A stretch of DNA of 64,000 nucleotides, taken from assembly GCA_965216755.1 (NCBI GenBank), contig CBDCGL010000011.1, positions 3,872,001 to 3,936,000 on the forward strand. Direction: 5' to 3'. Below are positions 1 to 10,382 of the stretch, in pieces. How positions within the stretch are numbered: the stretch's first letter is position 1; every line of letters starts with the position of its first letter. The DNA is from Alphaproteobacteria bacterium. Lineage in GTDB: Bacteria; Pseudomonadota; Alphaproteobacteria; UBA7887. A program made the translations under genes and the position numbers. The notes beneath the pieces are model-generated. The model was not told the DNA's origin. It saw nothing but the letters and a program-made list of their open reading frames with translations, and searched no databases.

Positions 1-103
1 CGGCGACAACAACGTGACAGGTCGAGGGCAGGGCGGCGCCGCGTCGCGCGGCCCCGATCCCTGCCCCCAATCGTCATCGAGTGACGAGTGGATTTGGCAT
101 TGC

Positions 104-616
104 TTAGCAAGTGGGGGTGCCGAGCGTGCCGATCTCCATGCAGGTGGTGGTGTGGTTGCCGACAGACACCGCCGCGTTGCGCTTCGCGATCACGGCCTGC
201 TGCACGACACCGTTGACCTCGATGTCACGCGCCGTGCCGATGTGCTGGCGGCTGTAGGCGTAGTTGCCGTAGGCGACGTTGGCGTTGTCCTTGGCGATCA
301 CGGCGCGCTGCATCACACCATTGATCTCACCATTCTCGACCGTGCCGATCCGGGTACGGGCGTCGGCGTAGTTGCCAACCGCGACCGTGGCGTTGCCCTC
401 GGCGATCACCGCATCCTGCAGCACACCATTCACCGTCAGGCCACCCTTCTTGGCGCCACTTTCCTTGCCGAAGTCGTTGTTCGACAGAACGTTCACGACG
501 GCGGCTTTTTGCTTAACCTTGGTGAAGTCGAAGTTGATGTCGTCAGCCGAAGCGGCCGAAACGGAAACCACGGTCAGAGCCGCAACAGCCGCCGAAATCT
601 TCAGAAGTGCGTTCAT
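104..616 (-). CDS. Secreted beta-repeat protein A1 (3 x 36-aa repeats, C-terminal C-x10-C), putative fibre/functional amyloid subunit
   Basis: Sec signal ending ASA|DD; repeats NGVLQDAVIAEGNATVAVGNYADARTRIGTVENGEI / NGVMQRAVIAKDNANVAYGNYAYSRQHIGTARDIEV / NGVVQQAVIAKRNAAVSVGNHTTTCMEIGTLGTPTC; two paralogs nearby. CDS is secure, function inferred. Confidence 0.85.
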   Translation of the reverse strand: MNALLKISAAVAALTVVSVSAASADDINFDFTKVKQKAAVVNVLSNNDFGKESGAKKGGLTVNGVLQDAVIAEGNATVAVGNYADARTRIGTVENGEINGVMQRAVIAKDNANVAYGNYAYSRQHIGTARDIEVNGVVQQAVIAKRNAAVSVGNHTTTCMEIGTLGTPTC

Positions 617-702
617 TGTTGAATCCTCAAATTAGGGTGGGTTTGATCTAGTCGCGTGACGACCGGGTCGTTTGGCTCTAACCGTGTCGCCCGGCCTGCC
701 TG

Positions 703-733
703 TAAACACGCTGCCCGCGGCACAGAGGGGTGA
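703..733 (-). promoter_or_regulatory. Putative ECF sigma promoter upstream of A1
   Basis: Minus strand TCACCCCT-N15-CGTGTTTA, same motif and spacing as upstream of the ECF sigma gene. Confidence 0.75.
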
Positions 734-786
734 TCAGCTTGAATTTTTTTGTTTCATGTCTGTTTGGCGCCGGCGCGAATACTGCG

Positions 787-834
787 AAAAAACAAAAAAA
801 TAAACCGCCGCAGCATTTTAAGCACTGCGGCGGT
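787..834 (-). terminator. Rho-independent terminator after B1
   Basis: ACCGCCGCAG...CTGCGGCGGT stem followed by long T tract on minus strand. Confidence 0.8.
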
Positions 835-888
835 GTCGGATCGTGGGGCATACACGTCGCCAGGTTGGCGACTCCCAAACAGCCAGAA

Positions 889-1191
889 TTACCTGCATCC
901 GCCGGCGCCGACCACGTTGATCACGTTCTTGGCGACGACGATGATCTCACGTGGCGCCTGGCCGTTGCCGGGATCGACATTGCCGATGCTGACATTGCCG
1001 CAGTCGCTGGAACGTTGCTCCAGACGCCGGGCCTCGCCACGCGTCAGGAACGTCTTGGCGAAAGCGCTGTTGACGCGCGACTGTGATCCGGAATCCAAAT
1101 GCGGCCGCTGATTGAACTCTTTGGCGCTGACGCTGGCTGCGGCCAGGGTCAACGAACCGGCCAACGCGATCACGAAAGCTGTTTTGGTCAT
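889..1191 (-). CDS. Small secreted Cys-pair protein B1, putative accessory/nucleator subunit
   Basis: Signal peptide ending VSA|KE, AGGAG RBS, paralog of 2029..2337, C-terminal 36-aa Cys-to-Cys segment. Confidence 0.85.
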   Translation of the reverse strand: MTKTAFVIALAGSLTLAAASVSAKEFNQRPHLDSGSQSRVNSAFAKTFLTRGEARRLEQRSSDCGNVSIGNVDPGNGQAPREIIVVAKNVINVVGAGGCR

Positions 1192-1223
1192 TGGTGATCT
1201 CCTATGTCCCGGTGAAAGGCTTT

Positions 1224-1256
1224 GGCGGAACCCGGGACTTTGCCGCGGGTTCCGCC
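1224..1256 (-). terminator. GC-rich hairpin between A2 and B1 (attenuator or mRNA-stabilising stem)
   Basis: GGCGGAACCCG...CGGGTTCCGCC inverted repeat with no U tract on minus strand. Confidence 0.5.
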
Positions 1257-1281
1257 GTGTAAGCGGTGGATTTGGCGTTGC

Positions 1282-1794
1282 TTAGCAGGTGGGGGTGCCG
1301 AGCGTGCCGATTTCCATGCAAGCGGTGGTGTGGTTACCGACGGAAACGACCGCGTTGTCCTTGGCGATCACGGCCTGCTGGACGACACCGTTGATCTCGA
1401 AGTCACGCGCCGTGCCGATGTGCAAGCGGCTGTAGGCATAGTTGCCGGCGGCGACGTTGACGTTGTTCTTGGCGATCACGGCACGTTGCAGAACACCGTT
1501 GACCTCACCGTTCTCGAGCGTACCGATGCGGGTGTAGGCCTCGGCGTAGTTACCGACCGCGACCGTGGCATTGCCTTCGGCGATGACCGCGTCCTGGACC
1601 ACACCGTTGACCGTCAAACCGCCCTTCTTGGCGCCGGTACCGGGGCCGAAGTCGTTGTTCGACAGAACGTTCACGACGGCGGCTTTTTGCTTAACTTTGG
1701 TGAAGTCGAAGTTGATGTCGTCAGCCGAGGCGGCCGAAACGGAAACCACAGTCAAAGCGGCGACGGCGGCGGAAATCTTCAGAAGTGCGTTCAT
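1282..1794 (-). CDS. Secreted beta-repeat protein A2
   Basis: 170 aa, about 18 differences from A1 counted by eye, first 50 aa identical, same 3 x 36-aa architecture. Confidence 0.85.
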   Translation of the reverse strand: MNALLKISAAVAALTVVSVSAASADDINFDFTKVKQKAAVVNVLSNNDFGPGTGAKKGGLTVNGVVQDAVIAEGNATVAVGNYAEAYTRIGTLENGEVNGVLQRAVIAKNNVNVAAGNYAYSRLHIGTARDFEINGVVQQAVIAKDNAVVSVGNHTTACMEIGTLGTPTC

Positions 1795-1881
1795 TGGTCA
1801 AGTCCCCTAAGAAGCGTTGATGTGTTGCTGGTGACGTTGCGTTGTTGGTGATGGCGTGACCGTGTCTTGCCGGTCTGCCCT

Positions 1882-1912
1882 TAAACACGCAGCGCTTCCG
1901 AAAGGGGGGTTA
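1882..1912 (-). promoter_or_regulatory. Putative ECF sigma promoter upstream of A2
   Basis: Minus strand TAACCCCC-N15-CGTGTTTA; downstream leader (GGCAG.CCGG...ACACGGT) conserved with the A1 leader. Confidence 0.75.
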
Positions 1913-1950
1913 GGGACGCCAAAAAAATGTCGGGGCACGCCAGTCAATAG

Positions 1951-1977
1951 AAAAAGGCCGCCCGATGGGGCGGCCCT
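1951..1977 (-). terminator. Rho-independent terminator after B2
   Basis: GGCCGCCC...GGGCGGCC stem plus TTTTT on minus strand. Confidence 0.75.
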
Positions 1978-2028
1978 TGCATCTTCAGTGGCACCAGCCT
2001 ATTTGGCGCCAAACGTCTTGATCACGTT

Positions 2029-2337
2029 CTATTGGCAACCGCCTGGGCCGACCACATTAACAACGTTTTTGGCGACCACAATGATCTCGCGTGGTGCCTG
2101 GCCATTGCCAGGATCGACGTTGCCGATACTGACATTGCCGCAATCACCCGTGCGCTTTTCAAGCCGTCGCACTTCTCCACGTTTTTGAAAGTTCTTCGCC
2201 AAAGCGCTGTTCACGCGCGATTGCGAACCGGAGTCCAGATGCGGCCGTTGGTTAAACTCGCCGGCTTGCGCTGCGCCGGTCAATGCCGTCACGCTGAAGG
2301 CGAAAGCCATGGCGATCAAAGGGGCAGGAAGTCTCAT
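2029..2337 (-). CDS. Small secreted Cys-pair protein B2
   Basis: Signal peptide ending AQA|GE; mature region nearly identical to B1 (EFNQRPHLDSGSQSRVNSA...CGNVSIGNVDPGNGQAPREIIVVAKNV). Confidence 0.85.
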   Translation of the reverse strand: MRLPAPLIAMAFAFSVTALTGAAQAGEFNQRPHLDSGSQSRVNSALAKNFQKRGEVRRLEKRTGDCGNVSIGNVDPGNGQAPREIIVVAKNVVNVVGPGGCQ

Positions 2338-2445
2338 GATCCGTCTCCGTGTCTAAGGACGGTGCCGATAGAGTAACCCGGCCTTGGCGAGAAAACCACG
2401 TCGAAGCCGCGTATATGTCTACCGGCGCCCCCTAACTGGCCAAAT

Positions 2446-2461
2446 AGCAATGCCAATGCCA
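2446..2461 (-). promoter_or_regulatory. Possible sigma-54 promoter upstream of B2
   Basis: Minus strand TGGCATTGGCATTGCT fits TGGCA-N6-TTGC(W) spacing. Confidence 0.4.
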
Positions 2462-2507
2462 TGCGGTCTTTCAATGCAACACCGCTCGGCGATAGGTCAT
2501 GTGCAGC

Positions 2508-3014
2508 TTATTCACACGTCGGTGTGCCAACCGTGCCAATTTCCATGCAGGCGTCGGTGTTGTTGCCCGAAGAGACCACTGCATTATCCTTGGCAATAAC
2601 CGCTTGCTGAACCACGCCGTTCACTTCTACGTCGCGCATCGTGCCAATATGCAATGTGCTTTCGGCATTGTTGCCGGCCGCGACATTGACATTGTCTTCG
2701 GCGATCACGGCGCGTTGCACGACGCCGTTGATTTCGCCACTCTCAATCGTACCGATGCGTGTATTGGCTTCGGAATTGTTGCCAACCGCGACTGTGGCAT
2801 TGCCGTCAGCGATGACAGCATCCTGCACAACGCCATTGATCTCAACACCACCGGATTTGGCACCCTTGCCGTCGGCGTCGTTGTTTGACAAGACGTTGGT
2901 AACGGCCGCTTTTTGTTTGACCTTATTGATGTCGACTTCTTGTGCGACAGCTGTCGAAAACAACAACACCGCAATTGCACTCGTTGCCATCAGAACTTTA
3001 CCAAAAGCGCTCAT
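2508..3014 (-). CDS. Secreted beta-repeat protein A3 (more acidic, divergent paralog)
   Basis: Start MSAFGK after GGGGGA RBS, signal ending AVA|QE, same three 36-aa repeats and terminal Cys pair. Confidence 0.85.
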   Translation of the reverse strand: MSAFGKVLMATSAIAVLLFSTAVAQEVDINKVKQKAAVTNVLSNNDADGKGAKSGGVEINGVVQDAVIADGNATVAVGNNSEANTRIGTIESGEINGVVQRAVIAEDNVNVAAGNNAESTLHIGTMRDVEVNGVVQQAVIAKDNAVVSSGNNTDACMEIGTVGTPTCE

Positions 3015-3205
3015 CTCACGATCCCCCATCGGAATGTTCGGTCAAAAGTACGGAATCTTTCGCTTCGTTCGCCTCCGATGTCTTCCAACAGCAAATACTA
3101 TAGCGTGGCAGTCGAATTTCGCACCTACAATTCGGCTCTGTCGCGAAACATTCATTCTGGGATTTGTCGGCGCGGGCCGACCTATAACCACAGTCGTAGT
3201 ACAAC

Positions 3206-3240
3206 AAAAAGGGGCGCTGTCCCGATTGGTCAGCGCCCCC
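3206..3240 (-). terminator. Rho-independent terminator after the anti-sigma gene
   Basis: GGGGCGCTG...CAGCGCCCC stem plus TTTTT on minus strand. Confidence 0.75.
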
Positions 3241-3263
3241 GCACGACGTCGATTGTTCAGCCT

Positions 3264-4775
3264 CTAGCCCGCGTCGCCTGGCCCGAACTCAAGAAAGATG
3301 TGATCGCTCAACACTTGCGCCTCACCACCCTTTTCCAGCTCGACCAAGGCACGACGCAGATGGGCAAAGTAGCTCTGCGCGTTTTCCACTTCGGGCCGGG
3401 GCTCGGCAAACAAAGGGTGTGACGATGAAATGATCGTGATCATTTCCGTGCCAAACGGTGCCACCACTTCATACGGTTTCGGGCCGTCGCCAATGCGCAT
3501 GGCCTGCCCGCGCGGCACGGCCTGGGTCGGATCCCGTCCGGCCAGCGTCAGATGGCGGACGGACCCGTCGCCCTGAATGAAATCGACATAAACGTAGCTG
3601 TCAAACAGGCTCGTCGCCGTCGCTTCCAAGAGCAAGGTCTCGCCCTCGACATAGCTTAAGGTGTGGGCAACCGGCCGGATCATGGGTGCGGCGCCGACGC
3701 TGGCGTCGGTGACCGTGAAGCGGTGCAGGATTTGCAGCGTCTCGCAAAATGGCCAGTCGCGCACGAGGACCTTGTCCGTATTGACGGCAACCTGTTCGGA
3801 AAGATCCGAGACTTCTCGACGCAGCAACGCGACATCGCTTTTGCGCGAAACATAGCCGGTGATGTTCAGCGCGTCGGCGCCCTCGACATGTGCGCCGAGC
3901 CGGGCGCAATCAAAGTCGTCCATGATCGACGTCAGTTTTTTCAGCGGGAAACCAGCCAAACCGACCGGGCCTTCCAAGGCCCGTGTGCGCGGTTGGCTGA
4001 GCTGTTGATTCTGTTGCGCCAAGCGCGCGTTTTCCTCGGCCAATCCGGCATTCGATTGCGCCAACCCGGCGTTTTCCGCGGCCAACTCGTTATAGTCGGG
4101 TGAAACGCCCAAATGCAGGTATGGGGTCACGCCTTGGCCGACAAACATGCCGATCAGCAAACTGGCGGCCATCGCGAAACCGGCGACCGGCGAATGGACA
4201 ATGCGACCTACCATAGACCGCCGCCGCGGCTGGAACCGCACCACCGTGTCATCGGATGGATCGGTTGCTTCATCGGTTATCTTCGGTGTCGGCGCATCAA
4301 CGGTTTCGACCGACGCGTCCCGGCCCATGTCTTGTCCGACGCCATTCTTGGCGTAAGCCAAGATGGCGTCATCATGGCCGTCCCAGGCAATCGGTTGCTT
4401 GGTCTGTTCATAAAGGCCGTAAATCGCCCGATCGGCTTCCGACATGTCGTCGTCGCCGATAGCGGGGCTCTGGTTCGCGCTGGGTCGGGCATGCACTTCG
4501 CCGCTGCGGGCATACGTCAGAATCGACTCATCCCAGGCATCCCACGGGATCGTGTCGCGGCCGCGGTCATACAATTCCAAAACAACGGCCTCGGCTTCAT
4601 CGACATCGGCGTGACTATCACGCGCCGCGTCCTGGGATTCCTTGGCGAAGCCCAGAATGGCATCGTCAGACTCGTCCCAGTCAATCGGGTCCTGTGTGCT
4701 TTCATAAAGACGCAGGATGACGCGGTCTGCCGCTGTCAAATCCTCGTCGTCGCGTTTTGTTTTGTCCTGTGCCAT
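3264..4775 (-). CDS. Putative membrane anti-sigma factor with triplicated N-terminal module, TM helix, coiled coil and DUF4384-like domain
   Basis: Directly downstream of ECF sigma; three LY...I.WD..D..IL..A[KR] repeats; TM GFAMAASLLIGMFVG; heptads LAAENAG/LAQSNAG/LAEENAR/LAQQNQQ; C-terminal YVYVDFIQGDGSVRHL...APFGTEMITIISSSHPLF typical of DUF4384. Confidence 0.7.
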   Translation of the reverse strand: MAQDKTKRDDEDLTAADRVILRLYESTQDPIDWDESDDAILGFAKESQDAARDSHADVDEAEAVVLELYDRGRDTIPWDAWDESILTYARSGEVHARPSANQSPAIGDDDMSEADRAIYGLYEQTKQPIAWDGHDDAILAYAKNGVGQDMGRDASVETVDAPTPKITDEATDPSDDTVVRFQPRRRSMVGRIVHSPVAGFAMAASLLIGMFVGQGVTPYLHLGVSPDYNELAAENAGLAQSNAGLAEENARLAQQNQQLSQPRTRALEGPVGLAGFPLKKLTSIMDDFDCARLGAHVEGADALNITGYVSRKSDVALLRREVSDLSEQVAVNTDKVLVRDWPFCETLQILHRFTVTDASVGAAPMIRPVAHTLSYVEGETLLLEATATSLFDSYVYVDFIQGDGSVRHLTLAGRDPTQAVPRGQAMRIGDGPKPYEVVAPFGTEMITIISSSHPLFAEPRPEVENAQSYFAHLRRALVELEKGGEAQVLSDHIFLEFGPGDAG

Positions 4776-4826
4776 GTCTTGACCATTTAGGAAGCCCGAC
4801 GCAAATCGGACCGTTTCCAATACTTT

Positions 4827-5450
4827 CTATTGCGTGCCCAAGACCTTGTTCTTCAGGTGCTGGCGGGCGTAGCGCAATCGCGTTTTCACCGTTTCTCTAT
4901 TCGTGTTCATGACCTCGGCGATTTCCTCGTAGCTCATGTCACCTTCCAGATGCATCAGAAGCGTGGCCTTTTGCACGTCCGAGAGTTCGTCGATGGCTCT
5001 CATCAGAATTTGGGCCTTTTGCTTGTCGCCGTAGATCTCTTCGGGGTTGGCAATATCGATGTTGAACGTGTCCAGGACTTCTTCATCGCCGACCACGGTC
5101 TCGTCGAAATCTACGGTTTCGTAGTTTTTGTTCTTCCGATACCAGTCAATGAGTTGATTCTTCGCCAGTTTGTACAAGTAGGTCGTGAACTTTGCCTCCG
5201 CTGTGTATTGGCCCGATCGACACGCCCGAACCAGCTTGAACCACGTTTCGTGGGCCAGCTCGTCGCCAACTGCGGGAGATCCGCACTGGCGCGCGAAAAA
5301 GCGCCGTAAGCCTTCTCTTCGTCGGCGGTATACCGCCTCGAAAGCACCATCATCGCCCGACAAGTACTGTTTCATCAGATCTTCGTCGGTCAGAGATATG
5401 TCCGCTACGGTCATCTCCGCGCCTGGCTGTCTAGTGATCAAAACGGCCAT
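4827..5450 (-). CDS. ECF subfamily RNA polymerase sigma-70 factor
   Basis: TDEDLM...GD..AFE, region 2 AKFTTYLYKLAKNQLIDWYRK, region 4 MSYEEIAEVMNTNRETVKTRLRYAR; alternative start at 5414. Confidence 0.92.
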   Translation of the reverse strand: MAVLITRQPGAEMTVADISLTDEDLMKQYLSGDDGAFEAVYRRRREGLRRFFARQCGSPAVGDELAHETWFKLVRACRSGQYTAEAKFTTYLYKLAKNQLIDWYRKNKNYETVDFDETVVGDEEVLDTFNIDIANPEEIYGDKQKAQILMRAIDELSDVQKATLLMHLEGDMSYEEIAEVMNTNRETVKTRLRYARQHLKNKVLGTQ

Positions 5451-5460
5451 TACACTTCCA

Positions 5461-5490
5461 TAACACGCGTGCCGCGGCAAGAAGGGGTGA
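5461..5490 (-). promoter_or_regulatory. Putative autoregulatory ECF promoter
   Basis: Minus strand TCACCCCT-N15-CGTGTTA ending 10 nt before the ATG at 5450. Confidence 0.75.
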
Positions 5491-5618
5491 CCGTTGGCGA
5501 TGCGTTAACGACAAAAATCCGGCGCGCGATGTCGTTTCGATAATGCATTGATTTTTCTTAAATTTATTTGCAAACCGCAAATTCGCGCCGCCGTCGCGGC
5601 GATTTTTTTGCCGTCCGG

Positions 5619-5648
5619 TGACCCTCATCCATTTCAACCGACGTTTAA
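5619..5648 (+). promoter_or_regulatory. Putative ECF promoter of the 54-aa ORF
   Basis: TGACCCTC-N15-CGTTTAA preceded by a T7 tract. Confidence 0.55.
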
Positions 5649-5727
5649 AGAAGTGCGCGGGCACGGATCGCGCGGTCGGCCGGTCGAAACGCCAGGCCGA
5701 AGACTTAGCGGACAATGGGAGGCAGAA

Positions 5728-5892
5728 ATGGCCAACAATTCAGACTATCAGCGTGCTTTTGCCCGCGAGTTGATTAATTCCATGGGCGTCGACGGCGCTA
5801 TCTATATTGCCCAGCAGCATCATTGGGACGGCGTTTTGGCCCATTGCCTGCGCGCCCAAGCCGAAGACCGCGTTCAGGCCTGCGCCGCCTAG
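5728..5892 (+). CDS. Small hypothetical protein (54 aa)
   Basis: GGGAGG RBS before ATG, own promoter motif and downstream terminator; MANNSDYQRAFARELINSMGVDGAIYIAQQHHWDGVL... Confidence 0.7.
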   Translation: MANNSDYQRAFARELINSMGVDGAIYIAQQHHWDGVLAHCLRAQAEDRVQACAA

Positions 5893-5928
5893 TCGGTCCC
5901 CGGCATCACATCACACTGTCGATAAAAC

Positions 5929-5960
5929 GCGCCGCGTCTTGCGGCGCATATTTCTTTTTT
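5929..5960 (+). terminator. Probable terminator after the small ORF
   Basis: GCGCCGC-GTCTT-GCGGCGC stem followed by T-rich run. Confidence 0.6.
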
Positions 5961-6021
5961 GGCCGTCGACAATGTCCGCGGATCACCAAGTGACAGACAA
6001 CCGCATGGGGCGCACATAACT

Positions 6022-6075
6022 CCTGCCGCCCAAATGCGCCCTGCCGCCCAAATGCGCCCCGCCGCCCAAGTGCGC
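6022..6075. repeat. Tandem repeat, 3 x 18 bp
   Basis: CCTGCCGCCCAAATGCGC twice, then CCCGCCGCCCAAGTGCGC. Confidence 0.9.
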
Positions 6076-6116
6076 CTTATGACCGGGTCACACATCACAC
6101 ATTTTTTTGTCGGCAC

Positions 6117-6147
6117 CAACCCCGATCGACGCGCTCTCCCGTGACTA
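6117..6147 (+). promoter_or_regulatory. Putative ECF promoter of the OmpA gene
   Basis: CAACCCCG-N15-CGTGACTA preceded by a T7 tract. Confidence 0.55.
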
Positions 6148-6258
6148 TAGGTGAGACGTGCCCCGGCCCTGGCGGCGGGGCGCCCGTGTAACAGGTTAGA
6201 CAACAGGTTTGGCGGTCGGTCCTTGGTTTGAGAGCCGACACCTTAAAGGGAGCGGATT

Positions 6259-7095
6259 ATGACTAGGCTCAAAACAACTTTGATGGCGACGGTGTGGAGC
6301 GCGAGCGTGGTTTTCGCCGCGGCCCAGGCTCAAGCCCAAGATGTGAATTATCTTGATGAGAATGCCACCCATTGTGAAATTTTCTCGTCGATCAGCATGG
6401 TGATCCCGGGCGACTGTGCCCTCGGTCTCGATGCGCCGGCGGCCAACCCGGCTACCGGTTTGGCGCCGCGCACCCGTGGCATCGTGCGCTACGATACGCC
6501 CGGTGGTACCCCGACGCCGGTGGTCCAGGCGACCGTGCCGTCGGCCCCGGCCCCGGCGCCCGTGGCGGCGGTCGAAACGCCGGAGTGGGATGACGTGCAG
6601 ATCGAGGACGCGGTCGCGGTCGCCGCACCGGCGCCGGTGGTGGCGGTCGAAGTGACCCCGGTTGCCGAAGAGGCGATCGTCGCCGACGCCACGCCCGTGC
6701 CGGCTGCCGTCGTCCAACAGGACAAGGACCCAGAGGAATTGGGTGTCGCGCTGCGCGTCGAGTTCGAGTACGACTCGTACCGATTGACCGGTGAAGCTCT
6801 TCAGGTCCTGGATCGTGTCGCCGCGGTGCTCAACGATCCCTTGCTGCGCGACAGCATGTTCCTGATCGAGGGACACACCGATGCCGCCGGCCCCGACGCT
6901 TACAACGTGACCTTGTCAGAGCGGCGTGCACAGAGCGTGCGTCAGTATCTGGCCCAGGCTCACGGCGTTGACTTCTCGCGCTTGGCCTACATGGGCAAAG
7001 GCGAGAGCGAGCTTTACAATCCCACGGATCCGTATGCCGCGATCAACCGTCGTGTCGAGATCCGCAACATCAGTGTGAACACGCCCACCGGCTAA
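6259..7095 (+). CDS. Secreted OmpA-family peptidoglycan-binding protein
   Basis: Signal peptide ending AQA, Pro/Ala/Val-rich linker, OmpA_C motifs FEYDSY.L, IEGHTDAAG..AYN..LSERRA.SV, GKGE, INRRVEI. Confidence 0.9.
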   Translation: MTRLKTTLMATVWSASVVFAAAQAQAQDVNYLDENATHCEIFSSISMVIPGDCALGLDAPAANPATGLAPRTRGIVRYDTPGGTPTPVVQATVPSAPAPAPVAAVETPEWDDVQIEDAVAVAAPAPVVAVEVTPVAEEAIVADATPVPAAVVQQDKDPEELGVALRVEFEYDSYRLTGEALQVLDRVAAVLNDPLLRDSMFLIEGHTDAAGPDAYNVTLSERRAQSVRQYLAQAHGVDFSRLAYMGKGESELYNPTDPYAAINRRVEIRNISVNTPTG

Positions 7096-7368: not shown

Positions 7369-8202
7369 GGGCTTGTTGAGATTCATCGAGAATTGATGAC
7401 CGCGGCGCATGCGTGAATCATGGAACAAAAGTTACGATCTGTCTTTTCGCAACGCATGGCGACCGCTTTGAATTCCTTGAGCTTCGCAAAGAAGTTTTCG
7501 ATCAGGTGGCGCCACTTGTAGATCTCCAGATCAATCTTGAGAGGGGCCAACCTCTGGGGGCGTTGCGAAATGACGATCTGCGCCCCGCGTTCATTCATCT
7601 CTTCGATGATCCAGTTGGAATCGAATGCTTTATCGGCCAGCACTGCGTCGAATTCGATGTCTTCGATTAGCGGCGCAACACCGACCGTATCGTAACGGTT
7701 TCCCGCCAGCAGGACAAAGCGTACGAGATTTCCCAAGCCATCCGTCAGCGCAAGGATTTTGGTGGTCCAGCCTCCCTTCGACTTGCCGATGGCTTGATTT
7801 TGAGTCCCCCTTTTGCGCCGTGTCCGTGGCGGTGGACCGGAACAATGGTGGCGTCGATCATGGCATATTCCATATCAGGGTCATCCGAGACCGCGGCAAA
7901 GAGGCGTTCGAAAACGCCCGCCTTCGACCAATCGTCAAACCGCTTGAATACCGTGTTCCACTTGCCGAATTCTTCAGGAAGATCGCGCCAAGGACTGCCC
8001 GTCCGCGCCTTCCACAAAACCCCTTCGACAAACAACCGGTTGTTATCACCACTGCGGCCCGGATCAGTCCGCTTGCCTAAGCAATGCGGCTCCATCTTGG
8101 CCCATTGATCGTCTGAAAGTACTGTACGCGTCATCAAAGCCCCCAAAAGGAAGCTTGAATCACAAATACAACACCATGGGAATCCTAATTCTCAACAAGC
8201 CC
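7369..8202 (-). mobile_element. IS5-family insertion sequence (two-ORF type), about 0.83 kb
   Basis: Terminal inverted repeats GGGCTTGTTGAGA / TCTCAACAAGCCC, CTAG/TA at both junctions, internal transposase. Confidence 0.92.
7383..8134 (-). CDS. IS5-family transposase made by -1 frameshift joining orfA (7745..8134) and orfB (7383..7736)
   Basis: orfA LSDDQW...RTGSPWRDLPEEFGKWNTVFKRF..W, IDATIV; slippery AAAAGGGGGA at 7814-7805; orfB LADKAFDS, YKWRHLIENFFAKLK. Confidence 0.88.
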
Positions 8203-8684
8203 TAGTTCAGCTGTTTGCCGAGACCCTTGATGGCATCGTTAATCAACCTGGCGCCACGTTTTTCGTCGACGGTGTTCTCGATCGCATGTGCCGTCGCCGA
8301 CATGGCGATGTCTACGGTTAAGGACTGAATTTCATCCAGCGCGCGTGCTTCGGCTTGGCCAATCTTGTCTTTGGCCAGCTGCTCCCGGCGCGCGAGTTGG
8401 TCGGCGATATGGGTCTTGGCTTCCTCTGATATGCGTGCTGCTTCCTCGCGCGCATGGGTGATGATCGCCTCTGCCTCGGCGGCCGCCTCGCGTTGTTTAC
8501 GCTGATACTGCGCAAGCAGGTTCTGCGCTTCCTCGCGCAAGCGCACCGCTTCCTCGAGTTCTTGGCGAATGCGTTCGCTGCGGGCATCCAATTGGCCAGT
8601 CAGCGCCCGATAGATCTTGGCACCGAAGAAAACGAAAAACAGGACAAACGCGACCGCGACCCAGAATTCCGGACTGCTCAGCAT
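8202..8684 (-). CDS. atpF: F0F1 ATP synthase subunit b
   Basis: N-terminal TM PEFWVAVAFVLF, long coiled coil LDARSERIRQELEEA; operon position; alternative GTG start 8690. Confidence 0.92.
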   Translation of the reverse strand: MLSSPEFWVAVAFVLFFVFFGAKIYRALTGQLDARSERIRQELEEAVRLREEAQNLLAQYQRKQREAAAEAEAIITHAREEAARISEEAKTHIADQLARREQLAKDKIGQAEARALDEIQSLTVDIAMSATAHAIENTVDEKRGARLINDAIKGLGKQLN

Positions 8685-8727
8685 GGTCACCTTTCCTTTT
8701 TTCGCGCCGCCATGGCCATCATCATGC

Positions 8728-9210
8728 TTACTCTTGAACCTTGGCCAGGGCGGCCTTTACTGTCGCGGCGGTTGGTTTCGCGCCAATCAGTTTCTTGGTG
8801 GCGTCCGTTACCAATTCAGCCGCGACGCCACGGATTTCAGCCATGGCCTTGGTTTTCGCGTCGGCGATACGGCCCTCCGCGTCCGCGACCATCACATTGA
8901 GGCGCGCGGTCAGTTCGTCGTTGCGTTGGGTCGACAGGGCCGCCACCTCTTGTGTTGCGCCCACGGTCACGTCATGCGCTTCGGCGCGCGCCCGGGCGAG
9001 CGACGCCTCGTAGGCGGCCAGCACTGATTCAGCTTCTGCTTTTAGGGCCTCGGCACGCTGCAAATCGTTTTCCAAGCGTTGGCGTCGCGCCTGCATAACC
9101 TCTTGGATGCGCGGCAACGCGGTGCGCGCCATCAGCACATAAAGCACCACGAAACATACGACCAACCAAAAGATTTGCGGCAGAAATGTCGCGCTATCGA
9201 GTTGCGGCAC
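8728..9210 (-). CDS. F0F1 ATP synthase subunit b'
   Basis: MPQLD..TF.PQIFWL signature of alphaproteobacterial b'. Confidence 0.92.
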   Translation of the reverse strand: MPQLDSATFLPQIFWLVVCFVVLYVLMARTALPRIQEVMQARRQRLENDLQRAEALKAEAESVLAAYEASLARARAEAHDVTVGATQEVAALSTQRNDELTARLNVMVADAEGRIADAKTKAMAEIRGVAAELVTDATKKLIGAKPTAATVKAALAKVQE

Positions 9211-9274
9211 GCGCGCCTCCTACAAGTCGAACCTTAGCCCAACGACCAAGGCGTTCAAAAACGCCGACGGCCAA

Positions 9275-9499
9275 TCAGGTGAACAGAATGAGGAATGCGA
9301 TCAGCAGCGCGAACAACGCGATCGCTTCGGTCAGCGCGAAGCCCAGCAACACATTGCCAAACACGCGTGACTGTGCGGCCGGGTTACGGGCGACGGCGGA
9401 TACGAAGCTGCCGAAGATTGTGCCGATACCCACCCCCACGCCAGCAAGCGCTATGGTGGCGAGGCCCGCGCCGATCATTTTGGCGGCGTCAAGTTCCAT
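9275..9499 (-). CDS. atpE: F0F1 ATP synthase subunit c
   Basis: [15 protein letters not shown] loop, ALTEA with the proton-binding Glu. Confidence 0.97.
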
Positions 9500-9545
9500 G
9501 GCAAGGGATCCTTTCTGGTCTCACTTTCGGTTTCGATGATCTGAA

Positions 9546-10382
9546 CTAGTGATGCAAATGGATGGCGTCGTTTAGATAGAGGCAGCTCAACACCGCGAAC
9601 ACATAGGCCTGCAAGAACGCGATACCCATTTCCAAGCCGGTCAAGGCGACGATCAGCAAGAGTGGCGCGATGCCCCCGACCAGCCCCAGCGCGATGACGA
9701 AGCCGCCGAACACCTTGAGCATTGTGTGGCCGGCCATCATGTTGGCGAAAAGCCTCAGGCTGAGGCTGACCGGGCGGACGAAATAGGACATCACCTCGAT
9801 CGGCACCAAAATCGCCAACAGCGGTATGGGCACGCCTTCGGGTACGAAAAACGACAGGAATTTCCCGCCGTGTCGGGCGAAGCCGATTAGCGTGACACCG
9901 ACGAATACCACTGCCGCCATCGTGAAGGTCACGATGATATGGCTGGTATAAGTGAAGCTGTAGGGAATCATGCCAAGCATGTTGCCCATCAAAATGAACA
10001 CGAATAGTGTAAAGATGAACGGGAAATAGCGGCGGCCCTCGCTGCCCACATTATCGCGAATCATGTTGGCGATAAATTCGTAGGACAGCTCGGCGATCGA
10101 TTGCCAACGCCCCGGTACCAGGGCGCGGCTACGCACACTGAAGGTAAACAGCAGCGTGGCGACAACAATGCCGATCACCATCCACAACGCGGAATTGGTG
10201 AAAGACAAATTTAGATCGCCGAAATGAAGGCTGATCAATTCCTTGATTTCGAACTGCTCCAGCGGGCCGTGCGCTTCACCGCCGTGACCATCCGCCACAC
10301 CGTGGCCGTCGGCGGGCGCGTGGTCACCGTCAGTCGCTGCAGCGCCTGACTCCGGATGCTCGTTTTGCTGTTCGTCTGCCAC
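9546..10382 (-). CDS. atpB: F0F1 ATP synthase subunit a
   Basis: PLEQF, SFTNS, RPVSLSLRLFANMMAGH, LQAYVF. Confidence 0.97.
   Translation of the reverse strand: MADEQQNEHPESGAAATDGDHAPADGHGVADGHGGEAHGPLEQFEIKELISLHFGDLNLSFTNSALWMVIGIVVATLLFTFSVRSRALVPGRWQSIAELSYEFIANMIRDNVGSEGRRYFPFIFTLFVFILMGNMLGMIPYSFTYTSHIIVTFTMAAVVFVGVTLIGFARHGGKFLSFFVPEGVPIPLLAILVPIEVMSYFVRPVSLSLRLFANMMAGHTMLKVFGGFVIALGLVGGIAPLLLIVALTGLEMGIAFLQAYVFAVLSCLYLNDAIHLHH

Follow-up and report, generated by a model that had tools for sequence, protein, structure and literature searches.

A conserved, unannotated proteobacterial gene module that may encode a curli-like surface fiber

Introduction

Three small secreted proteins encoded at one end of a stretch of alphaproteobacterial DNA raise a simple question: what do they build, and how would they leave the cell? 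The stretch (hereafter the window) spans 64,000 nucleotides of a UBA7887-lineage genome (GenBank assembly GCA_965216755.1, contig CBDCGL010000011.1, positions 3,872,001 to 3,936,000) and is part of a 4.85-Mb contig. Its three A genes, each encoding a chain of 36-residue repeats, alternate with genes for a second small secreted protein, B, and lie near genes for an extracytoplasmic function (ECF) sigma factor and an OmpA-domain protein. A first-pass annotation of the window proposed that A polymerizes into a beta-helical surface filament under ECF control. Among bacterial systems of this kind, curli and Fap are well characterized; a third case, linked to CsgG, is the holdfast anchor of Caulobacter. 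Here, we find that the module is real, conserved, and unannotated. We lean toward reading it as an undescribed system of the curli/Fap/Hfa kind, that is, a curli-like (type VIII-like) surface-fiber system in which the A subunit family would be new, the pore would be a wall-anchored CsgG relative, and the switch in this lineage would be an ECF sigma factor.

Results

Sequence and predicted fold of the A subunit

The A genes lie on the minus strand at 104..616 (A1, 170 aa), 1282..1794 (A2, 170 aa, 89% identical to A1), and 2508..3029 (A3, 173 aa, 68% identical to A1). Each encodes a signal peptide, about 30 further residues, and three contiguous 36-aa repeats without linkers, and a conserved basic K-K-G-G site stands just before the first repeat. 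As the first-pass annotation had observed, the pattern N-G-V-x-Q-x-A-V-I-A-x2-N-x5-G-N-x7-I-G-T is invariant in all nine repeats, and a terminal C-x10-C, which closes the third repeat, is invariant in all three tails. The repeat architecture and the cysteine tail recur in distant A homologs, which argues that the repeats did not arise by chance.

An exhaustive HMMER search with a three-sequence profile against 1.84 billion representatives recovered 26 proteins with E values of 1e-3 or lower; apart from the cluster representative of the window itself, two had values of 1e-10 or lower. The hits that we inspected were small and secreted, had two to six repeats of the same length, and mostly ended in A-C-x2-I-G-x-I-G-x3-4-C. 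Across all inspected homologs, repeat number ranged from 2 to about 11, and a single genome of the same family (G010) carries versions with two, six, and about eleven repeats. A-related open reading frames (ORFs) in the 80 related loci described below are 64 to 421 aa long, and an iterated family profile built over these loci (109 sequences) has the core N-x-N-a-A-x-G-x2-a-x-A-x3-I-G-x-I, with its two glycines present in 158/160 and 159/160 repeat cores. In Pfam and NCBIfam, no family, not even the curlin repeat, matched A or B above noise, and the curlin repeat matched none of the 27 A-family members used for alignment and family scans. When A3 and then the family alignment served as queries in a word-indexed search of proteins, almost solely the genome's own paralogs were returned, which did not gauge the size of the family. 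Searched with PADLOC, neither A and B nor the lipoprotein, small protein, and anti-sigma candidate introduced below gave a hit. One database protein, P0123 (149 aa), resembles the A signal peptide and N-terminal extension almost exactly over its first 56 residues and continues in unrelated hydrophobic sequence; a related assembly may here contain an A gene that is truncated or chimeric.

AlphaFold2, given a 27-row alignment, modeled A with a mean predicted local distance difference test (pLDDT) score of 77.2. The first 31 mature residues were disordered, pLDDT was 85-94 over residues 41-140, and every 36 residues formed four strands of a solenoid that has no cap. The modeled A is an uncapped beta-solenoid and not a globular enzyme, as the filament proposal had anticipated. 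Head-to-tail stacking, also part of that proposal, was likewise borne out in the models: trimers scored 0.81, 0.80, and 0.82 on the interface measure ipSAE, vs. 0.45 for the best control. At this threshold, 20 of 30 solved pairs passed, as did 1 of 23 single chains; the three-copy model, with its own alignment and three copies, departs from the set-up of this calibration. The partner had a pLDDT of 87 or more, and 95% or more of the contacts were common to the runs. The interface sets residues 105-146 of one copy against residues 33-72 of the next, and among the best 25 interface pairs, 11 are exactly 72 (2 × 36) apart in numbering and 17 are within 68-73. With this spacing, each position of repeat 3 would stack on the same position of the next subunit's repeat 1. 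The model thus predicts one rung per repeat and head-to-tail growth in register.

Comparison with solved structures gave weak matches. Foldseek returned nothing for A at E 1e-3 or better; its top two matches were the fibrils FapC (E 0.015) and CsgA (E 0.019), followed by ice-binding proteins and bactofilin. VIA-align also matched A weakly to FapC 9u4u (Z 3.7, root mean square deviation [rmsd] 3.9, 99 residues aligned) and to CsgA 8enq (Z 3.8, rmsd 7.6, 69 residues aligned). On the model, we place A in the beta-solenoid class, with no solved structure close to it.

A CsgG-like lipoprotein as candidate pore

The first-pass annotation saw no export pore and guessed that one lay to the left of the window. 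A candidate is indeed encoded there, downstream of A1 on the same strand: a lipoprotein that is CsgG-like by predicted fold (P0003; L006:8197-9693, minus strand; 498 aa in the database gene call). It carries a PG_binding_1 domain (E 7.4e-9), a DUF4384 domain (E 2.6e-18), and an N-terminal domain of about 250 residues without an assigned family. There were 403 homologs at E 1e-3 or better, and many of those labeled by the Joint Genome Institute are named curli channel CsgG. All 25 aligned members have both DUF4384 and PG_binding_1, and the Pfam CsgG family (PF03783) is weakly matched in 11 of these 25 (best E 5.2e-4).

An AlphaFold2 model of residues 20-270 had low-confidence stretches around two long hairpins. 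Its top Foldseek matches were all CsgG (4uv2, 7brm, 4uv3, 6l7c, and 6l7a; E about 6e-5, probability 1.00, TM 0.35-0.45). When E. coli CsgG was aligned to the lipoprotein family with hhalign, the lipobox cysteine, a D-E-T-G turn, the next helix, and the first hairpin region were paired, with long glycine-rich hairpin segments of the lipoprotein falling on the first CsgG membrane hairpin. In this alignment, which has a probability of 27.6%, a 12-residue gap in the lipoprotein with well-matched flanks stands opposite KPYPASNFSTAV, the segment of E. coli CsgG that we take to hold the constriction residues Tyr51, Asn55, and Phe56. These comparisons suggest that the N-terminal domain adopts a CsgG fold with segments equivalent to the membrane hairpins, and that the lipoprotein is probably a wall-anchored CsgG relative without the gate (the constriction loop). 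The NCBIfam model holdfast_HfaB scored the two lipoproteins of this genome at 15.9 and 24.4 bits (E 0.0058 and 1.4e-5; NF037935, equivalog cut-off 300 bits), and by sequence the domain appears about as far from HfaB as from CsgG.

Directly after the lipoprotein gene is a gene for a 121-aa small secreted protein (L006:7807-8172, minus strand). Farther left, an autotransporter beta-domain protein (L006:6130-7518, minus strand; 462 aa, with a passenger of only about 185 residues) was considered as a pore and ruled out: its gene is split from the module by a 20-pair terminator-like hairpin, and homologs are present in just 7 of the 80 loci.

The B partner

B1 (889..1191, minus strand; 100 aa) and B2 (2029..2337, minus strand; 102 aa, 70% identical to B1) are secreted proteins with a conserved N-terminal motif and a 36-residue cysteine-to-cysteine segment. 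B homologs share a signal peptide, the conserved start K-E-Y-N-Q-R-P-x-L-x-P-G-x2-A-K-V, a variable stretch, and a segment of the form C-G-x3-G-x-V ... P-R-E-x-I-V-V-A-x-D-I-I-N ... C. Among 31 B sequences, Cys64 and Cys99 are invariant and span exactly 36 residues, and a disulfide between them could close the segment. Aligning the A and B profiles with hhalign (probability 51%, E 1.5e-4, 28 columns) paired this segment with the I-G-T ... N-G-V-x-Q part of the A repeat. This hints that B may contain one A-like rung, and the role of seed or cap that the first-pass annotation gave to B could be argued from this one weak profile match. CsgF gave no alignment to the B profile (probability 0.4%).

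A conserved neighborhood with patchy distribution

To count neighbors, species-representative genomes were scanned with the lipoprotein alignment, giving 111 relatives, of which 80 loci were kept. B was found anywhere in the locus in 67/80 and directly upstream of the lipoprotein gene on the same strand in 55 of the 74 loci with at least 600 bp of flank. A was present anywhere in 49/80, and within 4 kb upstream on the same strand in 36 of 71 with at least 1.5 kb of flank. The 121-aa protein occurred in 42/80, as a rule right after the lipoprotein gene, and an OmpA-domain gene in 64/80. By contrast, an ECF sigma factor was detected at E 1e-4 or better in 13/80 loci and at E 1e-30 or better in 4/80, and the 518-aa anti-sigma candidate in 5/80. 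Of the co-occurrence on which the first-pass annotation had staked its proposal, the part concerning A, B, and OmpA therefore stood and now includes the lipoprotein, while an orthologous ECF pair was found at only about 4/80 loci. The C14-caspase and DUF4384 proteins that it had suggested looking for both turned up. Caspase-domain proteins were present in 37/80 neighborhoods by phmmer and in 40/80 by BLAST cluster; several of them also have PG_binding_1, so that some of the weaker matches may be due to that domain alone.

A, B, the lipoprotein, the small secreted protein, and the OmpA protein form a conserved gene neighborhood in several proteobacterial classes. Carriers include Alphaproteobacteria (Geminicoccaceae and other metagenome-assembled genomes [MAGs], Magnetospirillum, and Magnetovibrio), Betaproteobacteria (Rhodocyclus, Propionivibrio, Azonexus, and Noviherbaspirillum), Gammaproteobacteria (Thiodiazotropha and Halioglobus), one Myxococcota MAG, and one deltaproteobacterial MAG. 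Harmless bacteria that are in culture are among the carriers, for example, Magnetospirillum fulvum DSM 13234 (locus L062, with the gene order A-A-B-lipoprotein), Rhodocyclus purpureus DSM 168, and Propionivibrio dicarboxylicus DSM 5885. Closer to home, the lipoprotein is patchy: it was found in 4 of the 23 genomes from the window's own family and in 5 of the 201 genomes sampled from its class, with the window's own genome counted in both.

In the same genome, a second module (C11:2457925-2460736) is made up of a pair of A-like genes, one B-like gene, and a lipoprotein paralog, and elsewhere there are an A-B cassette and a solo A. At the DNA level, the solo A shares 98.9% identity with the A2 region, and this includes the promoter. 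Peptidase-like genes adjoin two of these sites: an S41 tail-specific-type peptidase gene (L096:9850-11379) lies directly upstream of the second A-A-B-lipoprotein module, and a protein with a trypsin-like active-site motif is encoded beside the dispersed A-B cassette (L007:9417-10487).

Locus layout and transcription units

The first-pass annotation gave the minus-strand order as ECF sigma factor (4827..5480), anti-sigma candidate (3264..4820, 518 aa), A3, B2, A2, B1, A1, and every one of these ORFs was found in place. Terminator-like hairpins follow B1 (804..834, minus strand; 12 pairs and a T run) and B2 (1953..1978, minus strand; 11 pairs), and a GC-rich hairpin with a 9-bp stem, an 11-nt loop, and a T run follows the 518-aa gene (3206..3239, minus strand); the last was unflagged by the scan tool because its loop exceeds 8 nt. 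Because of these hairpins, we read the A array as several transcription units rather than one operon. The units are likely the sigma factor with the 518-aa gene, A3-B2, A2-B1, and A1-lipoprotein-small protein, with the autotransporter apart.

The spacer between the A1 stop and the lipoprotein gene is 410 bp long (L006:9694-10103, minus strand), and its last 103 bases are positions 1..103 of the window. No terminator-like site was found in it. It does contain a weak B-like stretch (tblastn E 0.003-0.019 over 24-34 residues, in a tiny search space) at the position where related loci have B, and this may be a decayed B gene. Contigs from four DNA runs of one study bridge A1-B1, B1-A2, and the stretch from upstream of A2 to the sigma gene; they possibly come from the source sample and are then not independent. 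A look-up for RNA runs that contain the locus listed none.

On the plus strand, the OmpA-domain gene (6259..7095) encodes a secreted protein of 278 aa in which a linker rich in Pro, Ala, and Val is combined with an OmpA peptidoglycan-binding domain at the C-terminus (PF00691, E 1.6e-20, 73.7 bits, cut-off 27.2). The small ORF that the first-pass annotation placed divergent from the sigma gene (5548..5892, plus strand; 114 aa) fared less well: it matched no Pfam or NCBIfam family, had no homolog in the 80 related loci, and overlaps the ECF promoter region, and it is probably not a gene. Antisense open frames at 14-622 (plus strand, 202 aa) and 1222-1851 (plus strand, 209 aa) mirror A1 and A2 and are not separate genes. 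Upstream of the OmpA promoter motif, at about 6010-6065 (plus strand), are three tandem copies of an 18-nt CTGCCGCCCAAATGCGCC-like unit.

Beyond the OmpA gene, two adjoining ORFs of 117 and 133 aa (window 7383-8146, minus strand) resemble halves of an insertion-sequence transposase and sit between the OmpA gene and genes for the membrane sector of an ATP synthase (window 8202-10382). Gamma, beta, and epsilon subunit genes (L007:3539-6334) also directly precede the dispersed A-B cassette. By-eye reading of the translations, on which these ATP synthase assignments were made, places both the array and the dispersed cassette next to ATP synthase operons.

Regulation by an ECF sigma factor

The sigma factor was matched by Sigma70_r2 (E 1e-10), Sigma70_r4_2 (E 6.9e-14), and Sigma70_ECF (E 1.6e-6) in Pfam and by TIGR02937 in NCBIfam (87 bits, cut-off 42.9). 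Because a promoter motif overlaps its listed TTG start, the true start is probably a downstream ATG, at codon 11 or 23. The 518-aa gene starts 7 nt after the sigma gene. In its product, the N-terminal part is cytoplasmic and contains three internal repeats; then come one membrane helix, a coiled coil, and an end that is periplasmic and DUF4384-like. Its position, single membrane helix, and DUF4384-like end make it a candidate anti-sigma factor. The C-terminus matched Pfam DUF4384 at E 8.6e-5 and 23 bits, below the cut-off of 27, and hhalign paired it with the DUF4384 domain of the lipoprotein at a probability of only 28%. The repeats in the N-terminal third are three copies of a ~30-residue motif (…LYE.T..PI.WD…D.AIL.YAK…) without a family match.

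ECF control, as proposed in the first-pass annotation, is supported by a promoter motif common to the sigma gene and its presumed targets. CACCCC-N16-CGTGT occurs 90 nt upstream of A1 (706..732, minus strand) and at the sigma gene itself (5463..5489, minus strand), a signature of autoregulation; AACCCC-N16-CGTGT occurs 91 nt upstream of A2 (1885..1911, minus strand); and an exact AACCCC-N16-CGTG occurs 115 nt upstream of the OmpA-domain gene (6118..6143, plus strand). The motif was not found upstream of A3. Elsewhere in the genome, the two dispersed A copies have it 78 and 91 nt upstream, the second module 47 nt, an OmpA paralog 65 nt, and a caspase gene 203 nt upstream, and one hit lies upstream of a 520-aa membrane protein. 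In three other genomes with close orthologs of the sigma factor and the 518-aa protein (L051, L067, and L078), AACCCC-N16-CGTT is present upstream of the sigma gene in all three, and a near-identical motif precedes three of the four A genes examined (2/2 in L051 and 1/1 in L078; the A start in L067 is seemingly miscalled). A fourth sigma-pair locus, L013 (E 1.4e-37), was outside this comparison. A reading that takes GTGTTTA for the -35 element and CACGGT for the -10 element was rejected; it is in the wrong register, as relatives show GTGTT within the -10 element.

By number alone, the motif is unremarkable. [AC]ACCCC-N16-CGT[GT]T has 19 hits in the genome vs. about 14 expected from composition, and the window has 7 hits with at most one mismatch vs. 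6.3 (sd 2.4) expected by chance, 4 of the 7 being those before A1, A2, the sigma gene, and the OmpA gene. Because the total count is near chance, the argument rests on placement. Here, the promoters of paralogous A genes do not count as independent of each other; the sites at the sigma gene, OmpA, the second module, and the caspase gene, and those in other genomes, do count as independent. ECF control, as proposed here, is specific to this lineage.

Five of the 19 hits, including that of the OmpA paralog, fall within 10 kb at another locus, L106 (C11:2563001-2579000). Encoded there are a Sel1/coiled-coil/C14-caspase protein of 1118 aa, a Sel1-DUF4384 protein, an AAA ATPase (PADLOC PDC-M37B, E 3e-27), and two OmpA proteins, one of 1075 aa with a coiled coil and one of 201 aa. 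Going by the motif, L106 may belong to the same regulon.

Comparison with known systems

Several features recall curli. The A subunits are Sec-exported imperfect-repeat proteins that, in the model, form a beta-solenoid elongating by stacking; a second small protein, B, may be related to one repeat unit, going by its weak profile match; and the subunit genes cluster with the gene for a predicted CsgG-fold outer-membrane lipoprotein. However, the predicted A rung has 36 residues and four strands, compared to about 20 residues in curli, and sequence comparisons support the first-pass claim that the repeat is distinct from both the curlin repeat and FapC. Curlin_rpt (PF07012) matched neither A nor B at E 1 or better and nothing else in the genome, with a positive E. 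coli control, and E. coli CsgA aligned to the A profile through its signal peptide alone (probability 11%). For CsgE and CsgF (PF10627 and PF10614), a search of the genome up to E 0.1 came back empty, again with a positive E. coli control. The channel also differs, being a sub-threshold CsgG by sequence that appears to lack the 12-residue constriction loop and that is fused to PG_binding_1 and DUF4384, and the regulator is an ECF sigma factor rather than CsgD. An early survey places 171 of 601 Pfam CsgG hits inside curli operons and most outside them (PMC3521004).

The Fap system offers a second comparison. The A tail is C-x10-C, whereas that of FapC is CxxC; a C-terminal cysteine pair and a minor, paralog-like partner are still points of likeness, as is the place of FapC among the two best, weak, fold matches. 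The A-family profile matched no solved chain, FapC 9u4u and 9nqd and the CsgA fibril chains included, at E 10 or better. As described in a FapC study, FapC has three imperfect repeats of 35-40 residues with linkers between them, and every repeat makes up one cross-beta layer (PMC12392863). A likewise has three repeats with one predicted layer each, but these abut rather than being separated by linkers. The predicted exporter is a CsgG-like lipoprotein and not a FapF-type barrel, and general Pfam and NCBIfam scans of the neighbors, which used no Fap-specific models, gave no Fap-named family.

The third comparison is with the Caulobacter holdfast, where, according to one study, the CsgG-like HfaB is needed to place the small amyloid-like HfaA and HfaD on the surface (PMC6707917). 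The present locus is likewise alphaproteobacterial, and its CsgG-like lipoprotein matches HfaB weakly. However, those matches are far below the equivalog cut-off, the genome has no HfaB match at E 1e-20 or better, and profile hidden Markov models of A and B matched none of the ORFs of eight hfaB loci at E 10 or better. No fusion to PG_binding or DUF4384 was seen in these hfa loci. Among the 201 sampled class members, HfaB is present in 15 and the module lipoprotein in 5, and no genome is listed in both. Atlas look-ups returned clusters without names, with HfaD as the one lead (rank 22, score 0.81).

Discussion

In the surface-fiber system that we favor, unfolded A would cross the outer membrane through a multimeric lipoprotein pore and polymerize outside. 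B, whose gene neighbors that of the pore, would have a single A-like, cysteine-closed rung and act as a template or adaptor at the pore. The wall-binding domain of the lipoprotein and the OmpA protein would fix the machine to peptidoglycan, and the 518-aa membrane protein would keep the sigma factor inactive until its DUF4384-like end senses an envelope signal.

A number of results weigh against this reading. None of the 48,161 chains compared reaches Z 5 for A, so that all fold matches are weak, and the trimer result may reflect a general tendency of the predictor to place solenoids end to end or its memory of solved amyloid fibrils. Of the 80 lipoprotein loci, 31 yielded no A. For the pore, the best PF03783 match in the genome reaches 19 bits against a cut-off of 20.8, the lipoprotein-family profile found PG-binding domains and no CsgG among PDB sequences, the hhalign probability with E. 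coli CsgG is low, the model has a mean pLDDT of 60.5, and lipoproteins of the same superfold that are not pores (PelC, FlgT, and HpaA) match the model as well. The 518-aa protein matched no anti-sigma family in Pfam or NCBIfam. The disulfide loops of A and B, if oxidized in the periplasm, would be awkward cargo for a narrow CsgG-type channel. Lastly, our literature searches found no paper on this module or linking DUF4384 with CsgG.

These points leave room for other explanations. The same machinery could make a short, cell-bound multimeric anchor or surface patch, similar to the Caulobacter holdfast, rather than a long free fiber. We consider this unlikely, but it has a precedent: in the holdfast study, a CsgG-like translocon, HfaB, works with small amyloid-like partners, exporting HfaA and HfaD, which form sodium dodecyl sulfate (SDS)-resistant multimers that hold polysaccharide (PMC6707917). 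A wall-anchored pore paired with an OmpA protein would suit a fixed envelope structure, the two lipoproteins do match HfaB weakly, and the motif hit upstream of the 520-aa membrane protein could also be placed here. However, the HfaB scores are far too low for membership in that family, the genome has no convincing HfaB, A and B find no counterpart in the hfa loci, and the open-ended, in-register stacking predicted for A sets no obvious limit on length. Somewhat less probable still, in our view, is that A and B are periplasmic or outer-membrane-associated solenoids that stay inside the envelope, for example, as a wall scaffold, with the lipoprotein as a wall-bound organizer rather than a channel. 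The conserved cysteine pairs of A and B are typical of periplasmically oxidized proteins, other lipoproteins of this fold are not pores, and the CsgG constriction loop is apparently deleted in the hhalign alignment. The neighborhood can be read in the same way, as caspase-domain proteins with PG_binding_1 are found in 37/80 loci, the promoter motif recurs at the caspase/DUF4384/OmpA locus, and A and B could be substrates or partners of these DUF4384, C14-caspase, and OmpA proteins. Yet the best structural matches of the lipoprotein are to CsgG itself, its long glycine-rich hairpins align with the first CsgG membrane hairpin, and the uncapped ends of A would be hazardous in a periplasm without export.

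Finally, A could be a soluble secreted solenoid that binds ice or minerals, a lectin-like adhesin, or a bacteriocin-like peptide, with the predicted stacking being an artifact. Ice-binding, pentapeptide-repeat, and two-partner-secretion adhesin domains are in the same list of weak fold matches as the fibrils, and the YadA_head repeat matches 3 of the 27 A-family members (best E 4.2e-5). We regard this explanation as very improbable, given that no cap is predicted, that the interface covers whole terminal rungs, and that the expected error is below 8 Å for 168 of 169 contacts, with three runs in agreement. It also leaves the strict linkage of A to a CsgG-like lipoprotein and to B unexplained, and the PADLOC searches gave it no support.

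A more ambitious version of the surface-fiber reading joins all of the parts, and we hold it only tentatively, thinking it doubtful as a whole. The module would then be a third, independently evolved functional amyloid of Gram-negative bacteria, with a 36-residue rung, a disulfide-closed single-rung seed, and a gate-less, wall-anchored CsgG relative, set within an ECF-wired envelope network of DUF4384, OmpA, and C14-caspase proteins. In such a network, a periplasmic caspase-like protease may process the subunits, for example, after K-K-G-G, and DUF4384 would be a sensor or docking domain shared by the pore and the anti-sigma factor.

If the surface-fiber reading is confirmed, the A proteins would be a new subunit family with its own rung geometry, and a short, linker-free, disulfide-stapled solenoid unit of this kind could be of interest for protein-materials work. 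The parts list (subunit, partner, pore, small protein, wall anchor, and sigma-factor switch) is testable. For DUF4384, a domain of unknown function, the module offers a first functional context, and it suggests a job for the many unstudied CsgG-like lipoproteins that are built as fusions with PG_binding_1 and DUF4384.

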